The notes: generated from the sequence alone by a model not told the origin. A stretch of 64,000 nucleotides of DNA from Alphaproteobacteria bacterium (GCA_029941135.1 JAPYRI010000004.1:3116-67115), one strand, 5' to 3'; positions 6,726 to 36,047 are shown, counted from the stretch's first letter. A program made the numbers and translations.

Positions 6726-6733
6726 GATTGGGA

Positions 6734-7901: not shown

Positions 7902-7910
7902 GGCGCGGCC

Positions 7911-8387
7911 CTACCCGCCTGCTTCGTTCATGGCATGCGCGCCGGCGACAATCGACTTCACAATATTGTGGTAGCCGGTACAGCGGCAAAAATTGCCTGA
8001 AAGCTCACGGCGCACCGTGGCGTCGTCCACATCCGGGAAGCGGCGGGCGATATCAAGCCCGGCCATAACCATGCCCGACGTGCAAAACCCGCACTGGAGA
8101 CCATGGTTTTCGCGGAAAGCCGCCTGCATGGGATGAAGGGTGTCGCCGTCCGCGACCCCCTCAATCGTCAGCACGTCGGCATCTGCCGCTTGCACGGCGA
8201 GTATGGTGCAGGATTTGACCGGTATGCCGTCCATATGAACCACACACGCCCCGCATTGGCTGGTGTCACAGCCCACGTGGGTGCCCGTCAGGCGGAGTTG
8301 TTCGCGCAGCAACTGCACGAGTAATGTCCGGTTTTCAACCTCGACCGAAACCTCGGCGCCATTAACAGTCATTGAAACAGTAGGCAT
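7911..8387 (-). CDS. Molybdenum hydroxylase (2Fe-2S)-binding small subunit, copy 1
   Basis: The plant-type and second [2Fe-2S] motifs are present: [16 protein letters not shown]...[10 protein letters not shown]...CRCTGY. Confidence 0.9.
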
Positions 8388-8395
8388 GATACTTG

Positions 8396-8647
8396 TTAGC
8401 CTCCCCGAATGGCGGGTAGGAAATACACCTCGCTGGTAGGACCAATGTCCTCAAGCCAGGCATCTTGATGCAAATTTCCGTCGATTGCCACGGCCATACT
8501 GCCGTCTTGCAGCACCTCAGCGATGCCGGGAAATTTCTGATCGAGTTTGCGAATGAGATCGCGAACGTCGGTCACATCCATGTCGAGCGTCGTCTCACCA
8601 CCGGTAAACTGACGGCCCAGATCATTGGTGAGAACAATCTGGGCCAT
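8396..8647 (-). CDS. MoaD/ThiS-family ubiquitin-like protein (C-terminal GG)
   Basis: The 83-aa protein ends ...[11 protein letters not shown], the size and C-terminal Gly-Gly of sulfur-carrier and related MoaD-like proteins. It sits between the large subunit gene and the second S/M pair. Confidence 0.6.
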
Positions 8648-8651
8648 TAGT

Positions 8652-10916
8652 TTAGCTGCCGTTTTTGATCGCCGCCAAAATTTTAGGCGGTGACAAAGGA
8701 AGATCGGTCATACGGACGCCGATGGCGTTGGACACGGCATTCGCGACCGCGCCCAAAGGCGGAATGATAGGCACTTCGCCGACCCCACGTACTCCAAACG
8801 GATGAGCTTCGTTGGGCACTTCAATAATCACCGTATCGATCATCGGCAGGTCGGACGCAACCGGCATGCGGTAATCGAGGAAACCGGTGTTCTGCAGACA
8901 TCCATCGTCGCCGTAGACGTATTCTTCGTTCAAGGCCCAGCCGACCCCTTGGGCGACACCGCCTTGGATTTGCCCTTCCACGTAACTGGGGTGGATGGCG
9001 CGGCCGACGTCTTGCACGGCGGTGTAGCGCAGCACGGTGACGTGACCGGTTTCCGGGTCAACTTCCACATCGACGATATGGGTGCCGAAACCGGGTGCTG
9101 CGCCTTGGGCGTTGATAGCGGCGCGACCGGTGATCGGCCCGCCCATCTTGGCCGATGTGCGTGCGATGTCGGCGAGCGACATGGGCTCGAAGTCGCCAGC
9201 ATTGGGCCCGGCGGGCCGGGCGTGGCCTTCGCTCCATTCGACCGCATCTGGGCTGATATCCCACACTTTGGCGGCGCGTGTGCGCATTTGGTCAACCGCG
9301 TCGGTGGCCGCATTACACACTGCCATGCCACTGGCAAAGGTGGTGCGGCTACCGCCGGTCAAGTCGTTGTAGCCAATGGAACTGGTATCAGCGACGATCG
9401 GACGCACTTTGTCGTAGTCGATGCCGAGTACCTCGGCGGCCATGGCTGCCATGCTGGCGCGTGAACCGCCGATATCCGGATTGCCCGACAACACAACCGC
9501 TGTTCCATCGGTGTTGATGTTCACAGACGCGACAGATTCACCCCCCACGTTGAACCAAAACCCGCTCGCCACACCTCGACCCTGGTTGGGGCCGAGCGGT
9601 GCTGAGTAGTGGGGGTGGTTTTTTGCGGCCTCTAAGCATTGTTCGTTGCCGATGGGGCCAAACTTGGGGCCATAAGGCGCGGTCGTGCCTTCCTTGGCGG
9701 CGTTCAATTCGCGCAGGGCAATGGGATCCATGCCAAGTTTCTGCGCCATTTCGTCAATGACGCTCTCAACCGCGAACTCGGACATTGGCGCCCCGGGAGC
9801 CCGGTAGGCCGCAGCTTGAGGGCGATTAACCACCACATCAAAGCCAACAGTCTTTACGTTCTCGAGGTTGTAAGGCGCAAATGCTGTCATGGCGCCCGGC
9901 CCAACAGGTGAGCCAGGATAGCAGCCCGCTTGATAGCGCAATTCGGCTTCACCGGCGGTCAATTTACCGTCCTTAGTAGCGCCTAATTTAACATCGATAG
10001 ACGTACCAGACGTGGGGCCAGTAGCCCGCATAACCTCTTCACGGGTCATGGTCATTTTGACCGGTTTGCCAGCCCTGCCCGAAAGCGCCATGGCGACAGG
10101 CTCCAAGTAGATGACGGTTTTGCCACCAAATCCGCCGCCGATCTCAGCCGGAATAACCCGGATTTGGGCTTCATCAATCTGCATCAGACGGGCGCAATAG
10201 GACCTCACCATGAACTGGCCTTGGCTGCTGCACCAAATTGTGACCTGGCCATCTTCGGCGACACTAACTACGGCACCGTGGGGCTCGAGATAGCCCTGGT
10301 GAGCGGGTTTGGTCTTAAAAGTGCGTTCGATGATCACGTCAGCCGCGGCAAAACCCGCTTCCAGGTCGCCGAAGCCGAATTCGCAGCGGGAGGCGACGTT
10401 GGACGCCTTCGTCGGCGCCGGATCCACTCCAACAGTGATCATTTTTTTGTGCAGAAGCGGTGCTTTTGGTTTCATCGCTTCGTCCACGTCAATGACATGG
10501 GGCAGCACTTGATACTCAACTTTTATGAGCGACAGCGCTTTATCGGCGATGGCCGATGTGGTTGCCGCAACTGCGGCCACCGGATGGCCGTCATACAGGA
10601 CTTTCTTGCGCGCCATCAACTTGTCGGACATTTCGCTAAAATTGGCCGCCAGAATGCCGATCGAAATGGTCTTGTTGGGCAGATTTGGGAAGTCCTTGCC
10701 GATAACCACTGATTTCACGCCGGCGAGCTTTTCTGCCTTGCTGGTATCGATTGATTTAATTTTTGCATGCGCATGCGGGCTTCGGAGGATTTTACCGATC
10801 AGCATTCCCGGCATGCTGCTATCGGCCGAAAACAATGCCCGCCCGGTGACTTTGTCGGTACCATCGGGACGAACCGTCCGCTTACCGACCCATTTATAGT
10901 TGCCATCCACACCCAT
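8652..10916 (-). CDS. Xanthine dehydrogenase/CO dehydrogenase family molybdopterin-binding large subunit
   Basis: The 754-aa protein carries the Moco-domain motifs ...AEIGGGFGGKTV... and ...QAAAYRAPGAPM..., and has the aldehyde-oxidase / xanthine-dehydrogenase a/b-hammerhead plus Moco-binding architecture. Confidence 0.9.
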   Translation of the reverse strand: MGVDGNYKWVGKRTVRPDGTDKVTGRALFSADSSMPGMLIGKILRSPHAHAKIKSIDTSKAEKLAGVKSVVIGKDFPNLPNKTISIGILAANFSEMSDKLMARKKVLYDGHPVAAVAATTSAIADKALSLIKVEYQVLPHVIDVDEAMKPKAPLLHKKMITVGVDPAPTKASNVASRCEFGFGDLEAGFAAADVIIERTFKTKPAHQGYLEPHGAVVSVAEDGQVTIWCSSQGQFMVRSYCARLMQIDEAQIRVIPAEIGGGFGGKTVIYLEPVAMALSGRAGKPVKMTMTREEVMRATGPTSGTSIDVKLGATKDGKLTAGEAELRYQAGCYPGSPVGPGAMTAFAPYNLENVKTVGFDVVVNRPQAAAYRAPGAPMSEFAVESVIDEMAQKLGMDPIALRELNAAKEGTTAPYGPKFGPIGNEQCLEAAKNHPHYSAPLGPNQGRGVASGFWFNVGGESVASVNINTDGTAVVLSGNPDIGGSRASMAAMAAEVLGIDYDKVRPIVADTSSIGYNDLTGGSRTTFASGMAVCNAATDAVDQMRTRAAKVWDISPDAVEWSEGHARPAGPNAGDFEPMSLADIARTSAKMGGPITGRAAINAQGAAPGFGTHIVDVEVDPETGHVTVLRYTAVQDVGRAIHPSYVEGQIQGGVAQGVGWALNEEYVYGDDGCLQNTGFLDYRMPVASDLPMIDTVIIEVPNEAHPFGVRGVGEVPIIPPLGAVANAVSNAIGVRMTDLPLSPPKILAAIKNGS

Positions 10917-10918
10917 GA

Positions 10919-11395
10919 TTATTCTCCTCTCATTTCAGCAGCCACGTCCATGACGGACTTTACAATTTTGTCGTAACCCGTGCACCGGCACAGGTTGCCC
11001 GCAAGCCAATATCGAACTTCGGTTTCGGTCGGATTGTCGTTTCTATCCAGTAGAGACTTTGCGGCTACCAAAAAACCCGGTGTGCAAAATCCGCATTGCA
11101 ATGCTGCTTCTTCTAAAAATTTTTGCTGCAGTGGGTGCAGGGTATCGCCTTCGGCCATGTTTTCGATGGTTTCGATTTTGCGGCCCTCAGCTTCAGCGCC
11201 CAACACGAGGCAGGCACAGACTAGGCGACCGTCAATTGTGACACTGCAAGCGCCGCAGTCCCCTGAAGAACACCCTTCCTTACTGCCGGTCAGGTCCAAT
11301 TGATCGCGCAGTATATCGAGCAGGGTTTCCTGGGGTTCGCACAGAAACTCTACCGGTTCACCATTGACTGTAGATGTTACGTGGTGTTTCGACAT
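10919..11395 (-). CDS. Molybdenum hydroxylase (2Fe-2S)-binding small subunit, copy 2
   Basis: The motifs GCSSGDCGACSVTIDG...CGFCTPGFLV...CRCTGY are present. Confidence 0.9.
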   Translation of the reverse strand: MSKHHVTSTVNGEPVEFLCEPQETLLDILRDQLDLTGSKEGCSSGDCGACSVTIDGRLVCACLVLGAEAEGRKIETIENMAEGDTLHPLQQKFLEEAALQCGFCTPGFLVAAKSLLDRNDNPTETEVRYWLAGNLCRCTGYDKIVKSVMDVAAEMRGE

Positions 11396-11398
11396 TCT

Positions 11399-12265
11399 TT
11401 AACTCCTTGTACGTTCGAAGGCAATCAAAGCGGCCCGGCAGGCGAGAACACCCGCAACTTGGGTCCGGTATTCAATCGTGCCCCGCATATCATCAATGGG
11501 GTTGCAGGCAGCACTGGCTGCTGCTGCTAGTGCGTTCAGAGCGGCATCGTCGATCTTTGTGCCAATCAGTGCTTTCGCGCCATCAGCGACCAAAAGTACG
11601 ATCGGAGCGACCGCGCCTATGGCTACGCGCGCAGCGGTGCATGTGCCGCTTTTGTCGACGGTCAGACTTACGCCTGCGCCGACCATGGCAATGTCCATCT
11701 CGGTGCGTGGGATCATGCGCAGGTAAGCGTCCCCGGAACGGGGTGCAGGTTTAGGAAGGGTGAAATAAACGACAATCTCGCCTTTTTTGAGGACGGTCTT
11801 GCCCGGGCCTTTGCTGATTTTTTCAACCGGTACTTTGCGCCGGCCATTGGGTCCGGCGATGGTCGCGACGGCACTGGCTGCAATCAGGGCAGGGACGCTA
11901 TCAGCGGCGGGCGATGCGTTACACAAATTGCCGCCCAATGTCGCGCGCCCCTGAATTTGAGTGGAGCCGATGAGGTCCAAGGCTTCACAAACGCCCGGCC
12001 AGGCCTTTTTAAGCCGCTTATGTTCATTCACCTCCGCGCCGCAGACCGCTGCACCAATGCGAAAATCGTTCTTGTTGACGCTGATCGAGCACATCTCGTC
12101 GATGGACTTCACGTCAACAATTAAGCCGGGTTTTAGGCGTCCGGCCCGCAATTGCACCAGCAGATCAGTCCCGCCTGCCAGCACTCGTGCGCTGTTCCCA
12201 CCGTTTGCCATGAGCCCAACCGCTTCTTTTATCGAAGCGGGAGCTGCGTATTCTATTTGCGCCAT
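11399..12265 (-). CDS. Molybdenum hydroxylase FAD-binding (medium) subunit, copy 2
   Basis: The motifs ...VLAGGTDLLVQLR... and ...ATLGGNLCNASPAADSVPALIA... are present. Confidence 0.85.
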   Translation of the reverse strand: MAQIEYAAPASIKEAVGLMANGGNSARVLAGGTDLLVQLRAGRLKPGLIVDVKSIDEMCSISVNKNDFRIGAAVCGAEVNEHKRLKKAWPGVCEALDLIGSTQIQGRATLGGNLCNASPAADSVPALIAASAVATIAGPNGRRKVPVEKISKGPGKTVLKKGEIVVYFTLPKPAPRSGDAYLRMIPRTEMDIAMVGAGVSLTVDKSGTCTAARVAIGAVAPIVLLVADGAKALIGTKIDDAALNALAAAASAACNPIDDMRGTIEYRTQVAGVLACRAALIAFERTRS

Positions 12266-12404
12266 GTCTCTCCCCTATTCACCAAGTCGACTTAGACGAG
12301 TTTTCCATTAATCCGTCCATAAAAATAAGTGTGTCTGGAAGGCGTGTCAGCGAACATGGTTTCCAGTCAGAACGACCTATACCATGCTCCCCGCACGTCG
12401 AGAA

Positions 12405-13058
12405 TCAGTTGCCACCATTAAAATACCACTGACCGAGCATCCACAACAGGATCAAGGCACCAATCCAGACCATCGGATTAATCCCGCCATCCTCCTCGTA
12501 CTCCTCCACATTGATATCTTCTTCCTCGATTTCATCGCTCAATAAATCGGTGAGCGCGGAAAAAAACTGGTCTGCCAGTTTTGCCGCTGTACCTTCAATG
12601 AGGCGCGATCCGATTTGGGCCAATTTTCCACCAACTACGGCGTCGACGTCATAGGTCAGTCTGGTGTTGTCCCCATCGGTGGTCAAAACCACCTTGGCAC
12701 CGCCCTTGGCGAAACCCGCCGCTCCGCCCTGGCCTTCACCTGAAATGGTATAGCCGTTGGGCGGATCAAGGTCGGAAAGAGTAACTTCGCCTTTAAATTT
12801 GGCTTTGACCGGGCCGACCTTAATGGTCACCGCCGCCGTCATCTCGGTATTTGACAGCTTCTCAATTTCCTCACACCCAGGAATGCATACTTTCAACACT
12901 TCCGGGTCATTGAGGGCGTCCCAAACCTGTTCCCGTGTTGCCGGAATCGAGTACTCGCCCTTGATTTTCAACGAAATCCCTTTCGTTCTAATGGGAATGC
13001 CGCCCGAGCTTTCCCCCTCCCGTAGAGTTGATTTAGCGGCTTTACGGCCATCCGGCAA
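12405..13058 (-). CDS. CoxG-like SRPBCC protein (carbon monoxide dehydrogenase subunit G family) with acidic linker and C-terminal membrane anchor
   Basis: The core ...KIKGEYSIPATREQVWDALNDPEVLKVCIPGCEEIE...VKAKFKGEVTLSDLDPPNGYTISGEGQGGAAGFAKG... matches CoxG. The C-terminus EEEDINVEEYEEDGGINPMVWIGALILLWMLGQWYF is a hydrophobic tail. Confidence 0.8.
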   Translation of the reverse strand: MPDGRKAAKSTLREGESSGGIPIRTKGISLKIKGEYSIPATREQVWDALNDPEVLKVCIPGCEEIEKLSNTEMTAAVTIKVGPVKAKFKGEVTLSDLDPPNGYTISGEGQGGAAGFAKGGAKVVLTTDGDNTRLTYDVDAVVGGKLAQIGSRLIEGTAAKLADQFFSALTDLLSDEIEEEDINVEEYEEDGGINPMVWIGALILLWMLGQWYFNGGN

Positions 13059-13272
13059 TGCAGAAATTAACTTTCACACGGCTTCAAATCGCAGTTCGGC
13101 CACTGCTGGATGTTCGAGCGCACAATAACGTGACAAAACCTTTAAATTAAAGCGGTTTATCTCGTCGCCGTAATTTGGCATGCTTGTTAACTCGAAATAC
13201 CAAGAACAGCCGGTGCCCGGTCGCTGATGACTTAGGGGTAAAAGTACGGCGACCCATGCGAAAGGGGAATTT

Positions 13273-13752
13273 ATGCAAAGATCACTTCAAATCGATCCGG
13301 AAAAATGCACAGCCTGCATGCAGTGCGAATTGGCTTGTTCCTACCAAGCCACAGAATCGTTTAATCCATCGCAATCGCGGATCAAAGTATTCATGTTCCA
13401 CGAAACTGCGCGCTTCGTGCCCTATACTTGCACCCAGTGCGCGGAAGCCTGGTGCATGAAGGCGTGCCCGGTCGATGCCATCCAAGTAAACGCCGAAACT
13501 GGCGCCAAGGAAGTTATCGACAGCTTGTGCGTGGGATGCAAGGTGTGCACCATCGCCTGCCCGTTTGGCACGATCAATTACAGTCAATCGACCGGTAAAG
13601 TGGTCAAATGCGATCTGTGCGGTGGCGATCCCGAATGCGTCAAGGCTTGCCCAACCGATGCCATTACTTATGTGGACGCGGATTGGACCGGTCTCGACAA
13701 AATGCGGGCATGGGCAGCGAAAACCGATAGTCAGTCAGGCGCCCAGGCGTAA
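13273..13752 (+). CDS. 4Fe-4S ferredoxin-type electron-transfer subunit (AorA-like) of aldehyde:ferredoxin oxidoreductase
   Basis: The protein has multiple CxxCxxCxxxCP-type cluster motifs (CTACMQCELAC..., CTQCAEAWCMKACP, CVGCKVCTIACP, CDLCGG..CVKACP). Confidence 0.8.
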   Translation: MQRSLQIDPEKCTACMQCELACSYQATESFNPSQSRIKVFMFHETARFVPYTCTQCAEAWCMKACPVDAIQVNAETGAKEVIDSLCVGCKVCTIACPFGTINYSQSTGKVVKCDLCGGDPECVKACPTDAITYVDADWTGLDKMRAWAAKTDSQSGAQA

Positions 13753-13846
13753 GCCGCCAGCGGCACCCGTTTTTGGCCTCGTGGCCTCGGAAAAACATCG
13801 AGTTCGGCACCGACCGAACTTCACGGAATAAGGAGGAACAGCCATT

Positions 13847-15691
13847 ATGGCGTGGCATAAAAAAATTCTAAGGGTCAATCTCAGCAAAGGCACTTGTGAA
13901 AGTGAGCCGCTGAATTTGAAGTGGGCCGGGAAATATATCGGTCAGCGCGGCCTAGGCACCAAATATTTGTCCGAGGAAATAGACCCCAAGGTCGATCCTT
14001 TGTCGCCGGAAAATAAACTGATCATCGCGACCGGTCCTTTGACGGGGACGGCGGCGGCGACTGGCGGACGCTGGTCGGTGATCTGCAAAGGCCCGTTGAC
14101 GGGCGCGATCGCCGCCTCGAATTCGGGTGGCTACTTCGGCGCTGAACTGAAGTTTGCCGGCTGGGACATGATCATTATCGAGGGCCGGTCGGATAAACCG
14201 GTCTATTTGTTCGTGCAAGACGATAAAGCGCAATTACTGCCGGCAGACGACCTATGGGGCCAAGACGTATGGGAAACTGAAGAGGCTCTGCTCGCCCGTC
14301 ACCAGGATCCACAGATAAAAGTGGCTGCCATCGGCAAAGCTGGGGAAATCGGCTGTATGTATGCATGCGTCGTTAACGATAAGCATCGGGCGGCGGGGCG
14401 CTCGGGCGTCGGTGCCGTGATGGGGTCCAAAAACCTCAAGGCAATTGCCGTGCGTGGCACCCAAGGTGTCCCGGTGGCCAACCCGGCTGAGTTTATGGCG
14501 GCGACGACCGAAGCCAAAAAGGTATTGGCCGAAGACGCGGTCACCGGCCAAGGACTACCGGCCATGGGTACCCAAGTCATCATGAACGTGATGAATGAAC
14601 TCGGCGGGTTGCCCGCCCATAACCACCGCGACGTTCAGTTCGATGGCGCGAGTAAAATCGGTGCCGAAGCTATGATATTGCCCCGGCCCGATGGCTCGAC
14701 CAACCTGGTCAAGAACCAGGCTTGTTTTGGCTGCACCATTGCCTGTGGACGGATCTCTAAAATATCGCCCGAACACTTCACGGTTAAAAACAGTGGCAAG
14801 GAGTGGGGCGCGTCCGGCGGCCTCGAATACGAAAGCGCGTGGGCTTTCGGCGCCGACACAGGTGTTGATGACCTGGATGCGCTTACTTACGTCAACTTCC
14901 TATGCAACATGCATGGCATGGATACGATCTCGTTTGGGGCGACGGTTGCCGCCGCCATGGAGTTGTTTGAAATAGGCGCCATTACGACCAAAGAAACCGG
15001 CGGCATTGAATTAAAGTTCGGCTCGGCCGAAGCTTTGGTTGAAATGGCACTCCTGGTCGGGCGTGGCGAAGGCTTTGGCCTCGACATTGGTCTTGGGTCC
15101 AAACGCCTGTGCGAAAAATACTCGAAACCCGAAGTCGCCATGGTGGTGAAAGGTCAGGAATTCCCGGCCTATGACCCCCGCGCCATGCAAGGAATGGCGC
15201 TTGGCTATGCTACCAGCAATCGGGGTGCCTGCCATTTGCGTGGTTACACCGTGTCGGCTGAAGTATTTGGCGTGCCGGTCAAAATGGAGCCGTCGGCTAC
15301 CGAAGGCAAAGCTGAGATTACCATGGCCTTCCAAAACGCGACGTCGGTCGTTGACTCTGCCGGTATTTGCTCGTTCGCGACATTCGCCTGGACTTTGGAA
15401 GATGTGCAAAAGCAATTGAATGCCGATCTTGAAGGTGATTGGAGCCTTGAACGCCTACTCGAAACTGGCGAGCGCATTTGGAATCTGGAACGCCAATTCA
15501 ATTTGTCAGCGGGTCTGACCAAAGCTGATGACACATTGCCCGCGCGCTTATTGAAGGACGCGGCCAAAACCGGACCGGCAAAGGGCAAAGTCGCCGAACT
15601 CGGCAAGATGCTACCGGAATATTACGAGCTGCGAGGCTGGACGCCGGATGGCGTACCGACCAATGCAACGCTGGACCGGCTCGCGCTTTAG
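13847..15691 (+). CDS. Aldehyde:ferredoxin oxidoreductase, tungsten-pterin (AOR) family catalytic subunit
   Basis: The 614-aa protein has the AOR-family N-terminus MAWHKKILRVNLSKGTCESEPL...YIGQRGLGTKYL and conserved AOR_N/AOR_C blocks (...GPLTG...GGRWSV..., ...CFGCTIACGR...). Confidence 0.9.
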   Translation: MAWHKKILRVNLSKGTCESEPLNLKWAGKYIGQRGLGTKYLSEEIDPKVDPLSPENKLIIATGPLTGTAAATGGRWSVICKGPLTGAIAASNSGGYFGAELKFAGWDMIIIEGRSDKPVYLFVQDDKAQLLPADDLWGQDVWETEEALLARHQDPQIKVAAIGKAGEIGCMYACVVNDKHRAAGRSGVGAVMGSKNLKAIAVRGTQGVPVANPAEFMAATTEAKKVLAEDAVTGQGLPAMGTQVIMNVMNELGGLPAHNHRDVQFDGASKIGAEAMILPRPDGSTNLVKNQACFGCTIACGRISKISPEHFTVKNSGKEWGASGGLEYESAWAFGADTGVDDLDALTYVNFLCNMHGMDTISFGATVAAAMELFEIGAITTKETGGIELKFGSAEALVEMALLVGRGEGFGLDIGLGSKRLCEKYSKPEVAMVVKGQEFPAYDPRAMQGMALGYATSNRGACHLRGYTVSAEVFGVPVKMEPSATEGKAEITMAFQNATSVVDSAGICSFATFAWTLEDVQKQLNADLEGDWSLERLLETGERIWNLERQFNLSAGLTKADDTLPARLLKDAAKTGPAKGKVAELGKMLPEYYELRGWTPDGVPTNATLDRLAL

Positions 15692-15780
15692 GGGTTTTTA
15701 AGACGTGCGGGGGGTGCCCGTTCCAATACCTCTGGAGACGATAGCCACCCGTTTGCTGTCTGTCTGATGAGGATATTGAG

Positions 15781-17016
15781 ATGAAGCATGTGATTATCGG
15801 GGCCGGACCGGCAGGCGTGATTGCGGCAGAAACCTTGCGGGCGGCTGACGCCCGTGCGGAAATCACACTCATCGGGGATGAGCCCGAACCGCCATACTCG
15901 CGGATGGCAATTCCCTATGTTCTGAGCGGCATAATCGACGAAACCGGCACTTACCTGCGGAAAGATGAAGGCTATTTCGACAACTTGGGCGTTGAGGTCG
16001 TCCAAGGCCGGGTTGAAAAGGTGAACCCCGGCAAATGTTCGGTGACGGTGAATGGCGGCAACGTCAATTACGACCGGCTACTGATTGCGTCAGGCTCGCG
16101 CGCGGTCAAACCACCCATATCCGGATTGGATCTGCCTGGCATCCATCATTGTTGGACCTTGGAAGACAGTCGCGGCATCTCCGATTTGGCAAAAGAAGGC
16201 GCCAAAGTCGTGTTGATGGGCGCCGGTTTCATCGGCTGCATTATATTAGAATCCCTGGTCGCGCGGGGAGTTGAATTGACCGTGGTTGAAATGGGCGACC
16301 GCATGGTGCCGCGCATGATGAACCGGTCGGCCGGCAACATGATCCGCCGCTGGTGCGAAAAGAAAGGCGTGACGGTTTTCACCAGCACCCGCGGCGACGG
16401 GGTTGAGCAAGCGGGCACCGAATTAAAAGTCACGCTGAGCAATGGTAAAGCGATCAATGCTGATTTGGTTGTGGTCGCGACCGGAGTTGCGCCTAATATC
16501 GAGTTTTTAGAAGGCAGCGGCGTCAAAACCGACACCGGCATTTTGGTGGACCAGTATTTGGAATCCAGCGTACCCGGCATTTATGCGGCGGGGGATGTGG
16601 CAGAAGGGTTCGATTTCTCAACTGGCGCGCGCACGGTTCAAGCAATCCAGCCGACGGCAGCAGATCATGCCCGCGCGGCGGCACTTAACATGACCGGGAT
16701 AAAAACCCCCTTCCGGGGCAGCTTGGGCATGAACGTGCTCGATACGCTCGGCCTCGTCTCCACCTCATTTGGGTTGTGGAATGGGGTTGGCGGTGGGGAA
16801 CGGGCAGAGGTTATCGATGAAGAGAATTTCCGCTATGTCAGCCTCGAATTTGATGAAGACCAACTGGTGGGCGCGATTACCCTTGGCCATACTGACCATG
16901 TGGGTGTATTGCGAGGCCTCATTCAGACCGGTACGCACCTCGGCGCTTGGAAGCAACGTCTGATGGCCGATCCGACCCGGGTCATGGAGGCCTATCTGGC
17001 CGCGACCCAAGTGTAA
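15781..17016 (+). CDS. FAD-dependent pyridine nucleotide-disulfide oxidoreductase (AorC-like NAD(P)-binding subunit)
   Basis: The N-terminal FAD fold MKHVIIGAGPAGVIAAETL and a second NAD fold KVVLMGAGFIGCIILESL follow the ferredoxin-reductase-like architecture. Confidence 0.8.
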   Translation: MKHVIIGAGPAGVIAAETLRAADARAEITLIGDEPEPPYSRMAIPYVLSGIIDETGTYLRKDEGYFDNLGVEVVQGRVEKVNPGKCSVTVNGGNVNYDRLLIASGSRAVKPPISGLDLPGIHHCWTLEDSRGISDLAKEGAKVVLMGAGFIGCIILESLVARGVELTVVEMGDRMVPRMMNRSAGNMIRRWCEKKGVTVFTSTRGDGVEQAGTELKVTLSNGKAINADLVVVATGVAPNIEFLEGSGVKTDTGILVDQYLESSVPGIYAAGDVAEGFDFSTGARTVQAIQPTAADHARAAALNMTGIKTPFRGSLGMNVLDTLGLVSTSFGLWNGVGGGERAEVIDEENFRYVSLEFDEDQLVGAITLGHTDHVGVLRGLIQTGTHLGAWKQRLMADPTRVMEAYLAATQV

Positions 17017-17042
17017 TCGGCATTGACCCGGAAGAGTCAGCG

Positions 17043-17294
17043 ATGAAAGTCACGGTTAAATTATTTGCTCTTCTGGAAAAATATCTCCCACGGGATACGA
17101 TTGATCAGACCGTGGAGGTTGACGTGACTGACGGCGCTTCACCCCATGTTGTGCTGGCGAAGTTTGGAGTGCCGCCACAGGAATGCCACTTGCTCTTGGT
17201 CAATGGTTGTTTCGTCCTCCCCAGCGAACGGGATAACTTTGTCATGAGAGAAAATGACGCTTTGGCCGCGTGGCCGCCCATCGCGGGTGGATAG
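17043..17294 (+). CDS. MoaD/ThiS-family ubiquitin-like protein (C-terminal GG), AOR-cluster associated
   Basis: The 83-aa protein MKVTVKLFALLEKYLPRDT...ENDALAAWPPIAGG ends in Gly-Gly. It has an ATG at 17043 with an upstream GAAGAG ribosome-binding site. Confidence 0.65.
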   Translation: MKVTVKLFALLEKYLPRDTIDQTVEVDVTDGASPHVVLAKFGVPPQECHLLLVNGCFVLPSERDNFVMRENDALAAWPPIAGG

Positions 17295-17335
17295 AAAAGT
17301 TTAAGCGCTGTCGGGGGCGATACGCGACGGGGAGA

Positions 17336-17635
17336 ATAGGGGCTGTGACAACTGTTGTTACACAGGAAATGGGATTTACCCATAAACAATTGCTGCGCCT
17401 GTTACCGCGTGCGGCGGCGGACCGGCCTTACCAACTGAGCGACACGCAGTTCGTCATTGATGCCGGCAATAGCCGGACCGTGACGGTCGTGCTGGAACCT
17501 GAAACCGTACGCAAAATAGCGTCTGTATCTTTACCCCAAACGACTGTGCATTTTGAGTTTTCGGGCTTCGATTACGGTGAAGCCGAAGCCGAAATGGATC
17601 GATTGTCGATCCATTTTCATAAGGGCGGCGGTTGA
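17336..17635 (+). CDS. Conserved-looking hypothetical protein between the AOR cluster and the tungstate transporter (start uncertain: 17270, 17345 or 17372)
   Basis: This is an open frame of about 100 aa (...MGFTHKQLLRLLPRAAADRPYQLSDTQFVIDAGNSRTVTVVLEPETVRKIASVSL...DRLSIHFHKGGG). I do not recognise a family. Its codon usage resembles the neighbouring genes and it ends 10 nt before tupB. Confidence 0.35.
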   Translation: MGAVTTVVTQEMGFTHKQLLRLLPRAAADRPYQLSDTQFVIDAGNSRTVTVVLEPETVRKIASVSLPQTTVHFEFSGFDYGEAEAEMDRLSIHFHKGGG

Positions 17636-17645
17636 GGCAGGGAAC

Positions 17646-18350
17646 ATGAGTGACGTTGAAAGCGCATTACTCTCGGCAGTCAGGTTGGTTTTCACTTTGG
17701 ACCGGGACTTGGCGGAAATTATTGGTTTGTCCATGCGCGTCAGTTTGTCGGCGGTTGCAGTCGCGGCGCTCATTGGCGTGCCCTTGGGCGGTGCGCTCGC
17801 CCTATTACGGTTTCCCGGACGGAAGACTGTTATCGTATTGCTCAACGCATTTATGGGCCTGCCGCCGGTTGTTGTCGGCTTGGCGGTTTATCTCATGTTA
17901 TCGCGCCTGGGACCGATGGGTGTATTCGGTCTACTCTATAGTCCCGCTGCGATGATTATCGCCCAATCGGTATTGGTAACACCGATTGTCGCCGCCTTGA
18001 GCCGCCAGGTTTTTGTAGATTTCTGGAGCGAATATGAAGATCAGCTCAGATCTCTGGGTGCAGGCCGGGGAAGAGCGATCCTCACCCTGGCCTGGGATGC
18101 GCGCTCGAGTTTGGTGCCGCCGGTGCTCGCGGGATTTGGCCGCGCGACGGCCGAAGTAGGCGCGGTGATGATTGTCGGTGGAAATATCGATCATGTGACC
18201 CGGGTGATGACAACCACAATTGCCTTGGAAACCAGCAAAGGAAATTTGGCCATGGCCATGGGCCTTGGGATCGTCCTTGTGCTGTTGTCGCTTGCCGTGA
18301 ACGCGTCGGTATTTATTGCCAGCGAGGCCGCTGCCAAATCAGGGCGCTGA
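17646..18350 (+). CDS. tupB: Tungstate/molybdate ABC transporter permease (TupB-like)
   Basis: The protein has about six TM segments and an ABC-permease EAA-like region. The ribosome-binding site GAGGCAGGGAAC precedes the ATG at 17646. The ORF is open from 17553 but the upstream part overlaps the preceding gene. Confidence 0.75.
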   Translation: MSDVESALLSAVRLVFTLDRDLAEIIGLSMRVSLSAVAVAALIGVPLGGALALLRFPGRKTVIVLLNAFMGLPPVVVGLAVYLMLSRLGPMGVFGLLYSPAAMIIAQSVLVTPIVAALSRQVFVDFWSEYEDQLRSLGAGRGRAILTLAWDARSSLVPPVLAGFGRATAEVGAVMIVGGNIDHVTRVMTTTIALETSKGNLAMAMGLGIVLVLLSLAVNASVFIASEAAAKSGR

Positions 18351-18370
18351 CCTCTAACAGGAGAAAACGG

Positions 18371-19162
18371 GTGGGCCGTTCAGATCAATATCCAAGTGTT
18401 CTGCAAACCGTGCCGGGACCGGGTGATTTTCGGGGTCCCCGCATGGTGCCAGGCATTCTGCCACTTGAAGTGCGGCGAGTGTCACTGGATATGGGTTCCC
18501 GGCGGCTTCTGGACGATCTTAATTTCACCGTGAAGTCGGGGTCATTCACCATCATCCTGGGGCCGAATGGCGCGGGTAAATCGCTTACTCTCCGATTATG
18601 TCACGGCCTATTGCGACCAACTGTCGGTGAAGTGCTATGGCGCGGCATCGCCGCACGTGAGGTGCCAAAACATCAAACCATGGTTTTTCAACGCCCGATG
18701 ATGCTGCGCCGATCGGTCACCGCAAACATCGAGTATGGTCTTCGGCTTCAGGGTATGGGGCGGCGGCAACGCCGGGAACGGATTGCTGAAGTGTTGAAAC
18801 TTGCCGGTCTGGAGGCCCTTGCCGGTCGCGCGGCGCGCTCCCTTTCTATTGGCGAGCAGCAACGGGTCGCCATTGCGCGCGCCTGGGCGCTCAGGCCGCA
18901 AGTGCTGTTCCTCGACGAGCCGGCGGCAAATTTAGACCCGTCCGCCACTCGCGCCATCGAAGGGGTGTTGAGGGCGGTGCACAATTCCGGCACCAAGATC
19001 GTTATGTCCACACATGATTTACCGCAAGCTAAGCGGCTGGCCGATGAAATCCTGTTTTTGCACCGGGGGCGCTTGTTGGAGCAATCATCGGCGGACACTT
19101 TTTTCGATAATCCAGTAACCACCGAAGCTCAGGCTTTTGTTGAAGGAGAACTTTTGTGGTGA
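18371..19162 (+). CDS. tupC: Tungstate ABC transporter ATP-binding protein (TupC-like)
   Basis: It has the Walker A motif GPNGAGKS, the signature LSIGEQQRVAIARA, and Walker B LFLDEP. A GTG start has an AGGAGA ribosome-binding site 6 nt upstream. Confidence 0.8.
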   Translation: MGRSDQYPSVLQTVPGPGDFRGPRMVPGILPLEVRRVSLDMGSRRLLDDLNFTVKSGSFTIILGPNGAGKSLTLRLCHGLLRPTVGEVLWRGIAAREVPKHQTMVFQRPMMLRRSVTANIEYGLRLQGMGRRQRRERIAEVLKLAGLEALAGRAARSLSIGEQQRVAIARAWALRPQVLFLDEPAANLDPSATRAIEGVLRAVHNSGTKIVMSTHDLPQAKRLADEILFLHRGRLLEQSSADTFFDNPVTTEAQAFVEGELLW

Positions 19163-19998
19163 AACTTAAAGTTTGGCCAATGCTGGCCGCGGCAACGGTG
19201 TTGGTCGCTGCAATAGAGCTGAGTACGGGTATTCATATAGCGCATGCGGAAGACCGTTTTATTTTGATGGCGAGTACCACGTCCACACAGAATTCAGGAT
19301 TGTTCGACCATCTGCTGCCAAGATTTACCGCCAAAACCGGTATCCAAGTGCGTGTAGTTGCCGTGGGAACCGGGCAAGCACTTAAAATCGGCCAGCGTGG
19401 AGACGCCGACCTCCTTTTGGTTCATGACCCGGTATCGGAAATGATGTTTGTCAGGGACGGATACGGCATTGATCGCCGGGACGTGATGTATAATGATTTT
19501 GTCTTGATTGGTCCGAGCAATGACCCGGCTGGCGCCACCAAGGCGAAAAACATCAATGCGGCGTTCAGAAATATTGCCAAATCCGGCGCGTCGTTCGTTT
19601 CGCGGGGTGATAAAAGCGGCACCCACAATGCTGAACAGCGCATTTGGATCGATGTGGGTATCAATGCTGTAAAACATTCCGGCGGCTGGTATCGTGAAGT
19701 GGGTGCGGGAATGGGGGCGACCCTCAACACTACATCTGTGATGGGCGCCTACACATTGACTGATCGCGCGACTTGGCTGTCGTTCGGCAATAAAGGCGAG
19801 CTCCGCATTGTTCACCAGGGCGACGAACAACTTTTTAACCCCTACGGCGTGATGCTTATTAGCCCAAAGCGCTTTCCCCATGTGAAATCGGCGGCGGCGC
19901 GCGTCTTTATGAACTGGTTGACGTCCGATGAGGGGCAGGGCGCCATTGCCGAGTTTCGTATCGATGGCCAGCAGGTATTTTTCCCGAACACGAAGTAG
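19156..19998 (+). CDS. tupA: Tungstate ABC transporter substrate-binding protein (TupA-like)
   Basis: There is a signal peptide, followed by LMASTTSTQNSGLFDHLLPRF...VAVGTGQALKIGQRGDADLLLVHDP. The TTTS/TST anion-binding motif is typical of TupA/WtpA-type tungstate binding proteins. Confidence 0.75.
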   Translation: MVKLKVWPMLAAATVLVAAIELSTGIHIAHAEDRFILMASTTSTQNSGLFDHLLPRFTAKTGIQVRVVAVGTGQALKIGQRGDADLLLVHDPVSEMMFVRDGYGIDRRDVMYNDFVLIGPSNDPAGATKAKNINAAFRNIAKSGASFVSRGDKSGTHNAEQRIWIDVGINAVKHSGGWYREVGAGMGATLNTTSVMGAYTLTDRATWLSFGNKGELRIVHQGDEQLFNPYGVMLISPKRFPHVKSAAARVFMNWLTSDEGQGAIAEFRIDGQQVFFPNTK

Positions 19999-20017
19999 TG
20001 CGCCGCGCGTTAATTCT

Positions 20018-21223
20018 TCAAAACGGATTCTGCGTTTCAAGCCCCAGGGCGAGACGGCCGTGCTGCTCTGTGATGCGATCGATGTGGGCCAAAATATGAA
20101 GCGGCATGGCTTGCAAGTCCCGGTATCGCCGCTCGAAATTTGTGCTTTCGCGCAATCCACTGCCACCTAGAATGAGCAAGATCAATTTCATCGCTTCGCC
20201 GCATAGGTTTATGGCCTGCATACCGGCGGATGCCTGGCGGAAATAGTCGCCTTCGGTTGGCGGAACGTTTGCCTCAATGCGCGCGTCGGTTTCACTTAAT
20301 GCCGCGTAAACCGTATCGGTCGCCGCACTGATCAACGCGCGTGCTTTGCCAATGTTCACGTGAACGGTTGGGCGTTCAGCTACTTTGGTGCCAAAAATGG
20401 CAACTCGTTCCTTAATCCCTTCCGCCATCTCATTTAAAGAGGTTTCTGCAACGCCGGACGCCATCGCGCCCAACCACATCACAGCAGTAACCGCCCAATC
20501 TTCCCGGTAGCGCGGGTGAATGACGGGGTAATCGGGATTCCGGTAAAAGTCCCGATCCTTAAAACGCCACGGCACAACATGGGCCGCCGATATGACGGTG
20601 CCGTCAAAGTAAATATGGTCGGTCGCTGACGCGCGGACGCTCATGGCGTTCCAAGTTGGGTCGATGCGAACGCTTGGGTCGGTCAGCTTTACGACGGCAA
20701 AGTCGGGCGACCCTTGTTCGGCATTAAACGTAAAGCCCGTCCAGTCCGCGTATCGGCTGCCCGAGCCAAAAGCCGTGACGCCGGTAATCTCAACACTGCC
20801 ATCCTTATAAATCCCGTCAACATCTGTACCGGCACCTGCACCTTGGCAAACCCACTCGTGCTTCGATGTTACCTCAGCGAGAAAATCCTGATGTTTCGGC
20901 CCGAACAGGGCGCAGAAATGATGAAAGAGGGCCAGGTGATTCCACACTGCCCAGGCGGTCGATGTACACCGGGGCGCGATCGCGCGAAGTTCGTTTGCGG
21001 TCGCCACATGACTTCCGTTTAAGCCTGAGAGTTCGGGGCTGGCAGAAAAGCGCATGATGTCGTTGCGCTTAATCGCTTTTATAAGATCTGCCGAAATTGT
21101 CCGGCTGCGATCCGCTTCCTCGGCCTGGGCGGCAATATCGTTGAGCAAGGGTAGGATAATGACCGCGTCGCTGTAGGCCCGGCCATGAGACGAATAGAGA
21201 CTTTCTCCAACCATGTGATGCAC
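20018..21223 (-). CDS. Acyl-CoA dehydrogenase-fold flavoprotein (SfnB/DszC-like 'ACAD type 2' family, possible flavin-dependent monooxygenase)
   Basis: The 401-aa protein has an ACAD-like N-terminal helical domain and a C-terminal four-helix domain (...FRQASAGMQAINLCGEAMKLIL...). It is the last gene of the Mrp-like operon, separated by a 39-nt gap. Confidence 0.6.
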   Translation of the reverse strand: MHHMVGESLYSSHGRAYSDAVIILPLLNDIAAQAEEADRSRTISADLIKAIKRNDIMRFSASPELSGLNGSHVATANELRAIAPRCTSTAWAVWNHLALFHHFCALFGPKHQDFLAEVTSKHEWVCQGAGAGTDVDGIYKDGSVEITGVTAFGSGSRYADWTGFTFNAEQGSPDFAVVKLTDPSVRIDPTWNAMSVRASATDHIYFDGTVISAAHVVPWRFKDRDFYRNPDYPVIHPRYREDWAVTAVMWLGAMASGVAETSLNEMAEGIKERVAIFGTKVAERPTVHVNIGKARALISAATDTVYAALSETDARIEANVPPTEGDYFRQASAGMQAINLCGEAMKLILLILGGSGLRESTNFERRYRDLQAMPLHILAHIDRITEQHGRLALGLETQNPF

Positions 21224-21262
21224 CCTTGATTTTTCTGCCGTCGGTTATTCTGGGAGGTAACC

Positions 21263-22951
21263 TTACAGGTAATAGAAAATCAAGTAAGCCGCCAACAGGA
21301 TCAATACCCACATTGCCATATCGCCGGTGTGCCAGGTGCGGGCCATAATCCCACCCGGTCCATGGGTGCGCGAAATGCTCCCGATGATGCCCTTCACGCT
21401 GCCGACCGCCGCATTGCGGATACTTTTGTCCAAAGGCCCGAAGGTCGCGAGGAACGTGCGTACAAAGCCGGGCATAACCTTCCGGTACAGCCACTCGGCA
21501 TCGATGTTTACCCCGGGCAGCTCCGGCGGATAGATTTGGGTGAGCTTCAATATTGTGAACGCCAAGGCCGAGAAGAACAGCAATTGGGTTTGCGTCAGCA
21601 CGTGGGCAGCGGTGTAGGGATCGTAGGTCACTTCCCACGGCAGTATGCTGTAGAGTACCCAGGGGTAGGAGCCGTTGAAGATGCAAATGACCGCGGCGAT
21701 GCCCATGGCAAGCAGCATGTTCCACGGCGGCTCTTTGGTGCGGATGCCGCTGTCGTGGGCGAAAAAGGCAAAGAACGGGATTTTGATGCCGGCGTGATGG
21801 AACACACCCGCAGAGGCAAATAAAAGGGCGAGCCACACGATCGGATAACCTTCGGCTATTGCCGCCGACATGACCATGGATTTGGATACAAAGCCCGAGA
21901 ACAGCGGGAATGCCGAGATGCTGGCCGCGCCCACAATGCAAAGCCCGGTAGTAATCGGCATGGACTTATAAAGACCCCCCAATTCCGAGCCGTTCATCTT
22001 GCCGGTCATATGAAGAACGGCACCCATGCACATGAACAACAGGCCCTTAAACACGACATCGTTGAAAGCATGACTAATTGCGCCATTCAACGCCAAAGTG
22101 GTGCCAATGCCGATACCGACGACCATGAAGCCAACTTGGTTAATCAGGCTGTAGGCGAGCACACGGCGCAAGTCGTTCTCGATCACGGCAAAAAAGATCG
22201 GGAACATGGCCATGGTCGCGCCGATGTAAATTAAAAGCTCGGTGCCGGGAAAAGCACGCGCGAGCGCATAAACCGCCACTTTGGTCGTGAACGCACTCAA
22301 GAAAACCGTGCCGGTGGGCGTGGCTTCCGGGTAAGCGTCGGTCAACCAATTGTGCAGCATCGGAAAGCAGCACTTGATGCCAATTGCGGTGAATATCAGC
22401 CAGCCACTCAGTCCTTCGAGTCCGATGAAATCAAACGCAATGCTGCCGGTCTCGTGAATGCGGACCAGCGCCCCGGCGAGTAAAATAACGCCCGACAACA
22501 CTTGCACGAGCAGGTATCGCATGGCGGCCCGCCCGGCGCGCGCGGTTTTGCGGGCCAGGATAAGGAACACCGAGCTTATCGCCAGCATTTCCCAAAACAG
22601 AAACAGTGTAATCAAATCGCCCGCGAACACCGCGCCCAAGGCACTGCCCGCATACAGCAATCCGGCCACGTGTTGTGTGGTGTCTTTCACATGCAGGGAA
22701 TAGACAACGCCCAAGAAAGCTGCCAGATGAAAGAGATAGCCGAAAAGGGTGCTGAGACGATCAACCCGCATAAACTCGAGCTGATAATCGAAGAGGGCAA
22801 AGGTGATGCCGGTGGCTTCCGGAAAGGTATAGAGATTGTAAGCGCCAACGATTGGCAATGCGATCATGATCGCGCCGCGCATCCAGCCGCGCGTGACCGC
22901 GACAAGCGCCGCCGCCACATAAAAAATCAGGAAAGGCGCGACGCTAGTCAT
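21263..22951 (-). CDS. NuoL/MrpA-like proton-pumping antiporter subunit (third antiporter-like subunit of the module)
   Basis: The 562-aa protein has about 14 TM helices and the Proton_antipo_M core (...LFLFWEMLAISS..., ...FNDVVFKGLLFMCMGAVLH...). Confidence 0.75.
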   Translation of the reverse strand: MTSVAPFLIFYVAAALVAVTRGWMRGAIMIALPIVGAYNLYTFPEATGITFALFDYQLEFMRVDRLSTLFGYLFHLAAFLGVVYSLHVKDTTQHVAGLLYAGSALGAVFAGDLITLFLFWEMLAISSVFLILARKTARAGRAAMRYLLVQVLSGVILLAGALVRIHETGSIAFDFIGLEGLSGWLIFTAIGIKCCFPMLHNWLTDAYPEATPTGTVFLSAFTTKVAVYALARAFPGTELLIYIGATMAMFPIFFAVIENDLRRVLAYSLINQVGFMVVGIGIGTTLALNGAISHAFNDVVFKGLLFMCMGAVLHMTGKMNGSELGGLYKSMPITTGLCIVGAASISAFPLFSGFVSKSMVMSAAIAEGYPIVWLALLFASAGVFHHAGIKIPFFAFFAHDSGIRTKEPPWNMLLAMGIAAVICIFNGSYPWVLYSILPWEVTYDPYTAAHVLTQTQLLFFSALAFTILKLTQIYPPELPGVNIDAEWLYRKVMPGFVRTFLATFGPLDKSIRNAAVGSVKGIIGSISRTHGPGGIMARTWHTGDMAMWVLILLAAYLIFYYL

Positions 22952-23210
22952 CGTAGTAGTCTTCCTTGCGCATGATCAGTTTGCGCAGCTCCTTCGCACC
23001 CACCACCAACAATACACAGGCGACAAAACCATAGACGCCGTGAAACCCGAACAATTCTTCCCACGGGTGGTCGATGTGCCGGTGGATGAAAGCGTCGGCG
23101 GCAAAAGTGATCGCGCACAGGGCATACAGCACATATATGACCCGCTTTATGTTGCGCGGATTGTCGAACATGTGAGTCTTTTCAGGTGGTGTATTTTCTG
23201 GATCAACCAT
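22944..23210 (-). CDS. Small single-TM membrane protein inside the Mrp-like operon
   Basis: The 88-aa protein has a hydrophobic core VIYVLYALCAITFAADAFI...GFVACVLLVVGA. It is translationally coupled to its neighbours (8-nt overlap downstream, 5-nt gap upstream). Confidence 0.4.
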   Translation of the reverse strand: MVDPENTPPEKTHMFDNPRNIKRVIYVLYALCAITFAADAFIHRHIDHPWEELFGFHGVYGFVACVLLVVGAKELRKLIMRKEDYYDD

Positions 23211-23214
23211 TGGG

Positions 23215-26177: not shown

Positions 26178-26530
26178 GCGTCCCCATCCTGCCGATAGAT
26201 TTCGTCTTCTTCGATGGATCCGTAGGCTTCATTAATGCGCACGATTAGCGCGCCCGCCAGAGCCGTGGTCGCAACCCCAACAACAATCGCGGTCAGAATA
26301 AGGACATGGGGCAAAGGGTTCGAGTAGACCGTAAAGCGATCATCCAGAATGGGGGCGGTACCGCCGATAATTTTGCCCATGGAAATATATAGGAGGAACA
26401 CTGAGACCTGAAAAATGCTAAGGCCAACCACTTTTTTGACCAGGTTCGATCCTGAAATGACAATATAAAATCCAATCATCATCAGCACGACGACGACTAA
26501 ATAATTGAAATGTGACATCACCTCGGTCAT
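26174..26530 (-). CDS. MrpC/MnhC (NuoK-like) subunit
   Basis: The 118-aa protein has three TM helices, with ...LSIFQVSVFLLYISMG... Confidence 0.75.
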   Translation of the reverse strand: MTEVMSHFNYLVVVVLMMIGFYIVISGSNLVKKVVGLSIFQVSVFLLYISMGKIIGGTAPILDDRFTVYSNPLPHVLILTAIVVGVATTALAGALIVRINEAYGSIEEDEIYRQDGDA

Positions 26531-36006: not shown

Positions 36007-36047
36007 AGATTTCGTCCCCTTGATATCCGTTTCACTTGGTGGCCGAC

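Follow-up and report, generated by a model that had tools for sequence, protein, structure and literature searches.

A predicted AorABC-type tungsten oxidoreductase gene cluster that ends in tungstate transporter genes in an alphaproteobacterium, with a re-description of the small protein AorE

We analysed a 64,000-nucleotide stretch of DNA from an Alphaproteobacteria bacterium (GCA_029941135.1, JAPYRI010000004.1:3116-67115; the whole stretch is called the window here), in which an earlier reading of the sequence alone had predicted a tungsten-type aldehyde:ferredoxin oxidoreductase (AOR) gene cluster followed by genes for a tungstate ATP-binding cassette (ABC) transporter. Our results favour the reading, to which we give a probability of roughly 0.85, that the eight genes aorABCDE-tupBCA form one transcription unit encoding a tungsten-dependent aldehyde oxidoreductase linked to nicotinamide adenine dinucleotide (NAD), together with a tungstate importer. 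Judged by its sequence, the locus is of the AorABC or Class III tungsten oxidoreductase (WOR) type, which is already known, as is this kind of importer. The main gain is that the fifth gene product, AorE, is identified and re-described and that the divergent control region upstream of the cluster is corrected.

Gene content and predicted enzyme type

The aor cluster, followed by tupB, tupC and tupA, lies on the plus strand where the original prediction had placed it (Table 1). The gene set was established by listing open reading frames (ORFs), scanning them against Pfam and NCBIfam, and consulting public gene calls for near-identical contigs. Such contigs were found in several assemblies, in which tupC is called as the same 263-amino-acid (aa) gene, and the exact database match of AorE (P0001) is labelled "Sneathiellales bacterium." The genes are separated by spacers of 94 nucleotides (nt; aorA-aorB), 89 nt (aorB-aorC), 26 nt (aorC-aorD), 50 nt (aorD-aorE), 10 nt (aorE-tupB), and 20 nt (tupB-tupC), and tupC and tupA overlap by 7 nt. 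A terminator scan of the plus strand from 17000 to 20000 detected no terminator-like site, including between aorE and tupA. The order of the eight genes is the same in relatives with 85 to 90% AorB identity and recurs in the more distant loci L019 and L042 (related loci are cited by L numbers throughout). An 8-bp GC-rich hairpin is present at 13801-13820, inside the aorA-aorB spacer; the fold energies of that spacer and of the aorB-aorC gap were not significant against shuffled sequences (z = −0.8 and −1.4, respectively).

AorB carries both domains of the family, PF02730 (AFOR_N, 277 bits) and PF01314 (AFOR_C, 451 bits), and its best solved relative is AorB of the Aromatoleum aromaticum AorABC filament (8c0z_A; 930 bits, 66% identity). 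Scores fell across the other solved structures, from 9MQX (aldehyde:ferredoxin oxidoreductase, WOR; 675 bits, 54% identity), 1AOR (Pyrococcus furiosus [Pf] AOR; 580 bits, 48% identity), and 9G7J (aldehyde ferredoxin oxidoreductase; 572 bits) to 9Q1T (Haloferax WOR83; 423 bits), 1B25 (FOR; 264 bits), 4Z3W (BamB; 180 bits), and 6X6U (WOR5; 166 bits). The YdhV-type NCBIfam model reached 209 bits on the N-terminal domain alone, with a cut-off of 868, and the GAPOR model reached 41 bits, far under its cut-off. By these scores AorB, whose phylogenetic placement had been proposed as a check, groups with the tungsten-type A. aromaticum AorB (AorB_Aa), far from FOR, WOR5, BamB, GAPOR, and the probably molybdenum-using YdhV type; the outcome that would have refuted the original prediction, a grouping with molybdenum-dependent members, was not seen. 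In a neighbour-joining tree built without bootstrap, the window, L087, and L089 form a branch of their own that groups with the proteobacterial AorB clade containing AorB_Aa, and the 9MQX WOR and Pf AOR stand well apart from it. This branch is rather divergent (66 to 72% identity to all other AorB sequences), and the best species-level genome match to the window AorB has 72% identity. In an alignment to 1AOR, read against a published residue list (PMC12096430), AorB keeps the equivalents of all four second-shell residues (Pf T243, E313, Y427, and H448) and of all four iron-sulfur cysteines (Pf Cys288, Cys291, Cys295, and Cys494), but it lacks the dimer-iron ligands E332 and H383 that are specific to Pf.

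The remaining subunits match the same enzyme. AorA has 16 cysteines in four CxxCxxCxxxC-type groups, enough for four [4Fe-4S] clusters, and its best solved relative is A. aromaticum AorA (8c0z_C, 249 bits). The aorA ATG is preceded by a Shine-Dalgarno sequence that is kept in relatives, and the correct start is that of the 159-aa version with this conserved sequence. Public calls of aorA in L081 (6049-6408) and L082 (1348-1707) are 119 aa long and have lost the first cluster motif. AorC, a flavin adenine dinucleotide (FAD) oxidoreductase by family (Pyr_redox_2, 195 bits), aligns over residues 1-410, its full length, with 8c0z_E (472 bits). The MoaD-like gene of the original prediction is aorD, whose product scores above the cut-off for PF14451 (Ub-Mut7C; 26 bits, cut-off 23) and ends in ...WPPIAGG; orthologues also give ThiS matches. 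In most of 80 related loci this gene comes after aorC; in a few it stands before aorA or aorC.

A search for the AOR gene returned 445 species-level genome matches, and searches of the 80 related genome loci found aorA, aorB, aorC, and aorD in most of them. The earlier statement that a three-subunit AOR is known from a few bacteria holds for characterised enzymes, which are very few, but not for the genes, which are widespread. A classification from 2026 places about 5% of the family in Class III (WorLSN), with the A. aromaticum enzyme (AaAOR, clade 87) as its sole characterised member (PMC13328260). Three-subunit bacterial AORs occur in aerobic or denitrifying bacteria (PMC6365974), and A. 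aromaticum AorABC contains tungsten and no molybdenum and reduces NAD+ (PMC6365974; PMC9295118). On this basis, tungsten content and NAD+ coupling are predicted for the window enzyme as well. Cotranscription of the eight genes is also a prediction.

Table 1. Features of the aor-tup cluster, the divergent spacer, and the molybdenum (Mo) hydroxylase operon in the window; functions are predictions
Feature	Position	Strand	Description
aorA	13273-13752	+	159 aa; small subunit (WorS), poly-ferredoxin; 16 Cys; Fer4 family matches
aorB	13847-15691	+	614 aa; predicted catalytic tungsten-bis-pyranopterin subunit (WorL); AFOR_N and AFOR_C
aorC	15781-17016	+	411 aa; predicted FAD-containing, NAD-reducing subunit (WorN); Pyr_redox_2
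aorD	17043-17294	+	83 aa; MoaD/ThiS-like, GG end (WorX); putative tungsten-cofactor maturation factor
aorE	17345-17635	+	96 aa, GTG start; no Pfam/NCBIfam model
tupB	17646-18350	+	predicted ABC permease of tungstate importer
tupC	18371-19162	+	263 aa; ABC ATPase; ABC_tran 98.6 bits
tupA	19156-19998	+	predicted periplasmic tungstate-binding protein with signal peptide
Divergent intergenic region coxG(−)/aorA(+)	12972-13272		about 301 bp
Conserved 31-bp block	13152-13182	+	91-121 bp upstream of aorA ATG
Mo-hydroxylase operon	2716-12971	−	xanthine-dehydrogenase family; divergent from aorA
coxG	12405-12971	−	
M		−	288 aa
S		−	158 aa
L		−	754 aa; Mo subunit
ThiS-like	8396-8647	−	GG end
S' and M'	7095-8387	−	second 2Fe-2S (158 aa) and FAD (268 aa) subunits
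xdhC		−	two genes (split)
mocA		−	fusion protein
sufS	3132-4640	−	SufS-type cysteine desulfurase with N-terminal extension
nifU-like	2716-3135	−	

AorE, a small protein with a glycine tail

The original prediction listed an unknown ORF in the cluster. The gene is present, but the 121 aa counted from its longest start become 96 aa from a GTG start, and by its sequence we identify the product as AorE, a presumed maturation factor. Pfam and NCBIfam gave no match for it. A first pass with tblastn located AorE behind aorD in about 20 related loci, each with an RGGG end. With a profile built from 102 database sequences, every one of them annotated as "hypothetical" and lacking Pfam domains, the gene was found after aorD in 54 of 62 loci with enough downstream sequence to be informative, including betaproteobacterial loci near A. 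aromaticum. All three contigs that were chosen through weak AorE members rather than through AorB have AorE directly after a ThiS-like gene and beside aorA and aorB, and each of these clusters also holds an aorC-like FAD-oxidoreductase gene. An exhaustive hidden Markov model (HMM) search yielded 1,520 AorE representatives at 50% clustering (1,027 at E ≤ 1e-10), and nearly all of the HMM matches listed reach the last residue of the protein. The C-terminal [RK]GGG tail is invariant; one proline and the terminal GGG are the sole invariant columns. From the betaproteobacterial loci (L029, L048, L057, L076, and L080), we infer that A. aromaticum aorE belongs to the same family.

In A. aromaticum, aorD and aorE have been described as "resembling MoaD" (PMC6365974), and the addition of aorDE to an expression construct raised the specific activity from 4.5 to 16 U/mg (PMC9295118). 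In an AlphaFold (AF2) model of the window AorE (predicted local distance difference test [pLDDT] 87.6, predicted template modelling score [pTM] 0.77), the elements run strand-helix-five strands-helix and the tail is disordered. Foldseek returned weak matches of the SRPBCC/Bet v 1/CoxG type, with the best template modelling (TM) scores for a KA1 domain (0.67) and PA4090 (0.60), and no MoaD, ThiS, or ubiquitin-like fold was among the top 50 matches. Comparison of AorE with AorD by hhalign gave a probability of 0.1%. The predicted strand order, the Foldseek matches, and the hhalign result together suggest that AorE has a MoaD-like glycine tail without the MoaD fold, and we rejected a MoaD paralogue or beta-grasp protein as its identity. 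AorE has probably been mis-described as MoaD-like in the literature; in our view it more likely handles or inserts the cofactor.

The tungstate importer and the divergent molybdenum operon

The best solved relatives of the binding protein are annotated or characterised TupA proteins, namely 3LR1 (Geobacter TupA, 246 bits) and also 3MUQ, 5MY5, and 3KN3. No ModA model matched it in NCBIfam at E ≤ 0.01, and no ModA structure did so at E ≤ 0.001. The assignment to TupA rather than ModA therefore stands, and the TTSTQNSG motif on which it was first based is literally present at residues 41-48. TupB matches NF038017 (244 bits, cut-off 100), and the ModB model scores 79 bits on this permease. The residues proposed to bind tungstate are, in D. 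alaskensis numbering, those of the TTTS motif, His59, Arg118, Thr124, and Asp170 (PMC5517513). The corresponding positions of the window TupA read STTS, VH, SRGDKSGT, and TDR, so that the equivalents of H59, R118, T124, and D170 are kept. STTS or STSS is typical of the subgroup with the order tupB-tupC-tupA, and tupABC-type neighbours of Sedimenticola keep TTTS.

Direct fusion of tup behind aor is uncommon. Of 80 species-level loci, 8 have tup genes within the available flanks of aorB (5 of the 39 with full-length flanks), and they stand directly behind aorE only in L019, L042, and the window's own clade; in L018 they follow aorE after a 2-kb insertion with a DNA methylase. Adjacency of tup to tungsten-enzyme genes has been described before (PMC13328260). 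Downstream of tupA, L087 and a JGI contig have a cytochrome b561-type gene.

Divergent from aorA runs a xanthine-dehydrogenase-family Mo-hydroxylase operon with the gene order coxG, M, S, L, ThiS-like, S', M', split xdhC, mocA fusion, sufS, and nifU-like (Table 1). This order and the divergent layout are kept in relatives with 85 to 90% AorB identity. The window thus has two S/M pairs and one L subunit, which leaves the S'M' pair an orphan; M' is closest to the glyceraldehyde dehydrogenase beta model. Each of the two divergent operons carries its own small GG-tailed protein. AorD and the ThiS-like protein were considered as recent paralogues, and this was rejected for lack of similarity. Genes of the CoxE-like (VWA) and CoxD-like (AAA) families lie apart from the operon, on the minus strand beside the P450 gene (40423-42493), and members of both families sit inside the Mo-hydroxylase operon in L087 and the JGI contig.

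The spacer between the two operons had been given as a 214-bp divergent control region. The junction is real and is kept in relatives, but its length is 301 bp; the shorter value follows from the longest coxG ORF (TTG at 13058). The coxG start is instead the TTG at 12971, which has a Shine-Dalgarno sequence and is preceded by GAAAGGGA; in public annotation of identical contigs, CoxG is 188 aa long. Within the spacer, a 31-bp block (GCGGTTTATCTnGnnGCnGnAATTTGGCATG) is invariant in an alignment of the window, L087, and L089, in which the flanking spacer DNA diverges. The block is unique in the window (0 chance matches expected) and, among 89 loci, is confined to the window's clade; its sequence suggests that it may be a -35 element (TTGGCA), a regulator site, or both. 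No sigma-70 consensus promoter was called in 12972-13272. A conserved TGGCATG in the spacer recalls sigma-54; it lacks a -12 GC at the right spacing in all three relatives, a strict sigma-54 match was found in 1 of 76 aorA upstream regions, and a canonical sigma-54 promoter for aorA was rejected on the absence of the -12 GC element. The spacer holds no ModE box (TATAT..ATATA), and an Rfam scan of 7000-22000 for the molybdenum cofactor (Moco) riboswitch and other RNA families gave a sub-threshold chance match only. Shared regulator sites such as ModE-like boxes, which the original prediction had proposed to look for, were thus not identified in the spacer, nor were a Moco riboswitch or a shared operator; the sole candidate element is the 31-bp block, which lies closer to aorA. 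Coregulation of the Mo and tungsten operons is therefore hypothetical.

The sole TATAT..ATATA palindrome in the window (TTTGATATATATTCATTTGATATATCAAA, 547-575) is superficially ModE-box-like and lies just upstream of a PadR-like gene, identified by eye (minus strand, start near 506). It is probably the operator of that gene; as a ModE box for the aor and Mo operons it was rejected, since it is unrelated to them.

Several related loci combine these parts differently. In L008 (alphaproteobacterial metagenome-assembled genome [MAG], 8698-15582), the order is coxG, aorA, aorB, aorD, aorE, S', M', split xdhC, and mocA, so that the tungsten module sits in the slot that M-S-L-ThiS occupies in the Mo operon of the window. 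Neither aorC nor a Mo large subunit L was found in the 21.8 kb of L008, and its S' and M' are 67% and 56% identical to the S' and M' of the window, compared with 52% and 32% for S and M. In six related MAGs (L015, L017, L018, L023, L038, and L040), the gene immediately before aorA, on its strand, is of the S' [2Fe-2S] type; it stands about 1.05 to 1.1 kb upstream of aorB and is 65 to 70% identical to the window S'. An 804-aa ORF upstream of S' in L018 has no family match and is probably spurious. Two betaproteobacterial MAGs have split XdhC-type genes downstream of aor, in L057 beside aorE at about +3.9 kb from aorB and in L029 at about +6.7 kb, a hint that the tungsten enzyme may be a client of XdhC-like chaperones. 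In L072 (5199-9043), the place of aorC, aorD, and aorE behind aorAB is taken by two genes for multihaem cytochromes c and one gene of the cytochrome b561 type, and tupBCA lies divergently upstream; the genes after aorB were considered as Mo subunits, which was rejected in favour of multihaem cytochromes c and a cytochrome b. From L008, the S' loci, and L072, the AorAB core seems to be combined with differing electron-exit modules, which fits the published class scheme.

Elsewhere in the window, 34119-40368 encodes two membrane hydroxylases of the AlkB/fatty-acid-desaturase family, a P450, a GFA-family protein, and a GST. The aerobic-type functions of the original prediction are all present, as two genes of AlkB type, one for a P450, and one that is NDUFS4-like; they agree with the known occurrence of three-subunit bacterial AORs in aerobic or denitrifying hosts (PMC6365974). 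The O2-dependent families at 34119-40368 could be a source of aldehydes. On the minus strand, an Mrp/Mnh-type antiporter cluster (21263-28695) adjoins the aor-tup genes. A general link between aor and Mrp antiporters was rejected, as the pairing occurs in the window clade, L008, and L092 and not in other related loci.

Proposed function, alternatives, and known systems

We propose that AorB would oxidize aldehydes to carboxylic acids at a tungsten-bis-pyranopterin centre and that electrons would pass from its [4Fe-4S] cluster through the four AorA clusters to the FAD of AorC and on to NAD+; this path is proposed because it is the mechanism of A. aromaticum AorABC (Class III, clade 87). AorD, with its GG tail, and AorE, with its GGG tail, would be no subunits of the enzyme and would presumably help to make or insert the tungsten cofactor. 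TupA would capture periplasmic tungstate for import by TupBC, and the position of the tup genes behind aorE would couple metal supply to synthesis of the apo-enzyme. Such coupling would be useful where molybdate greatly exceeds tungstate, for example in sea water. Sea-water molybdate exceeds tungstate about a thousandfold.

Several points weigh against this proposal. For the window organism it is built on sequence and not on biochemistry. TupA is the sole NCBIfam model to match the binding protein, at 242.6 bits under an equivalog cut-off of 400, and the TupB model, the best named match for the permease, scores 146.5 bits under an equivalog cut-off of 320. The first Thr of TTTS is replaced by Ser in the window TupA, a conservative change. 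TupA proteins also bind molybdate (dissociation constant [Kd] 6 to 50 nM; PMC5517513), so that metal specificity in vivo is presumptive. As for a single transcription unit, the 94- and 89-nt gaps around aorB mean that internal promoters or RNA processing may occur, and the sigma-70 and terminator scans gave no signal above shuffle expectation, so that no promoter is assignable with confidence.

The molybdate affinity of TupA bears directly on the reading that TupBCA feeds molybdate, mainly or in addition, to the divergent Mo-hydroxylase as one shared oxyanion pump. Marine SAR116 genomes have been proposed to use TupABC for molybdate too (PMC12262181), the Mo operon is the immediate neighbour of the cluster in a pairing that is kept in relatives, and modABC genes were not seen in the 64 kb of the window. 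On the other hand, the tup genes lie on the aor strand, 10 nt behind aorE and outside the Mo operon; tup stands beside aor at six loci where no Mo-hydroxylase genes were detected (L007, L009, L014, L036, L042, and L072); and published TupA proteins prefer tungstate 10^3- to 10^4-fold (PMC5517513). We consider a shared pump rather unlikely. It is unlikely, too, that the divergent operons act as one unit in which S'M', XdhC, and MocA also serve the tungsten enzyme and the Mo and tungsten enzymes are alternative aldehyde oxidoreductases. The two S/M pairs with one L, the L008 arrangement in which aorA-aorB-aorD-aorE stands between coxG and S'-M'-xdhC-mocA without aorC and L, the S'-type gene before aorA in the six MAGs, and the split xdhC of L057 and L029 speak for it. 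Yet L008 is a single MAG contig and possibly misassembled, the six S' loci probably represent a single lineage, and some chance adjacency is expected because xanthine-dehydrogenase-family genes are numerous in Alphaproteobacteria; moreover, aorC is complete in the window, where no substitute is needed, and no shared operator was found in the spacer. A bolder combination would make AorE a non-beta-grasp maturation factor whose GGG tail is used chemically, for example by MoaD-like activation or by insertion into a partner during tungsten-cofactor assembly, and would have S'M', XdhC, and MocA wired to the tungsten enzyme; the sharing of S'M' is suggested because aorAB-DE fill the Mo-subunit slot in L008 and aorC is absent there. 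Taken jointly, these two parts make a speculative and, on balance, improbable reading.

Two further alternatives concern the enzyme itself. It might run in reverse or with another donor, reducing acids to aldehydes or NAD+ with H2 instead of detoxifying aldehydes, given that in vitro both acid reduction and H2-driven NAD+ reduction are known for the A. aromaticum enzyme (PMC9295118). Reverse rates are, however, very low and need donors of very low potential (PMC6365974), no hydrogenase or low-potential donor system occurs at the locus, and the AlkB-like hydroxylases and P450 of the window belong to families that yield alcohols and hence aldehydes; we regard reversal as very unlikely. That the homologue uses Mo, like E. 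coli YdhV, is barely credible. AOR-family members that probably use Mo exist (Class V; PMC13328260), but the YdhV-type model matches well short of its cut-off and in one domain, the closest solved relative contains tungsten and no Mo, and a TupA-type importer lies in the same operon. We therefore retain the tungsten-dependent, NAD-linked aldehyde oxidoreductase with its tungstate importer as the preferred interpretation.

If so, AorABC machinery would be hard-wired to a tungstate importer in an alphaproteobacterium with O2-dependent enzymes, and the locus would strengthen the growing case that tungsten enzymes also occur outside strict anaerobes. Should the organism live in sea water, it would benefit from a tungsten-specific supply line. 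AorE, with about 1,500 cluster representatives that are tied to aor operons and have no database model, is a clear choice for studies of how the tungsten cofactor matures and for producing these biocatalysts in heterologous hosts.

Among known systems, AorABC(DE) of A. aromaticum EbN1 (8C0Z) is the nearest. Its five genes have the identical order, all three window subunits match 8C0Z chains best, and the second-shell residues, the iron-sulfur cysteines, and a 16-Cys AorA are common to both. The window differs in its host, an alphaproteobacterium (Sneathiellales MAG) that carries O2-dependent enzymes, and in having tupBCA at the operon end and a divergent Mo-hydroxylase operon upstream. The Class I archaeal AOR (1AOR) belongs to the same catalytic family and shares the active-site residues, whereas its type is a ferredoxin-using homodimer; the Class IV bifurcating WOR (9MQX), of the same catalytic family and likewise with the same active-site residues, has WorABC where the window has the FAD/NAD subunit AorC. 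With the TupABC systems of Geobacter sulfurreducens (3LR1), Desulfovibrio alaskensis G20 (5MY5), and Campylobacter jejuni, the window TupA has in common the PBP_like_2 fold family, SRGDxSGTH with the selectivity arginine, the His, the Asp, and the anion-pointing Ser of TTTS; it differs in the order tupB-tupC-tupA, in STTS (STSS in L019 and L042), in a 3-residue insertion near residue 170, and in scores under the NCBIfam equivalog cut-offs. Finally, AorD resembles the small sulfur carriers WorX, MoaD, and ThiS in its size (83 aa), C-terminal GG, Ub-Mut7C/ThiS similarity, and place within the operon, whereas AorE shares with them the glycine tail alone, on a predicted fold of a six-to-seven-stranded sheet and two helices.

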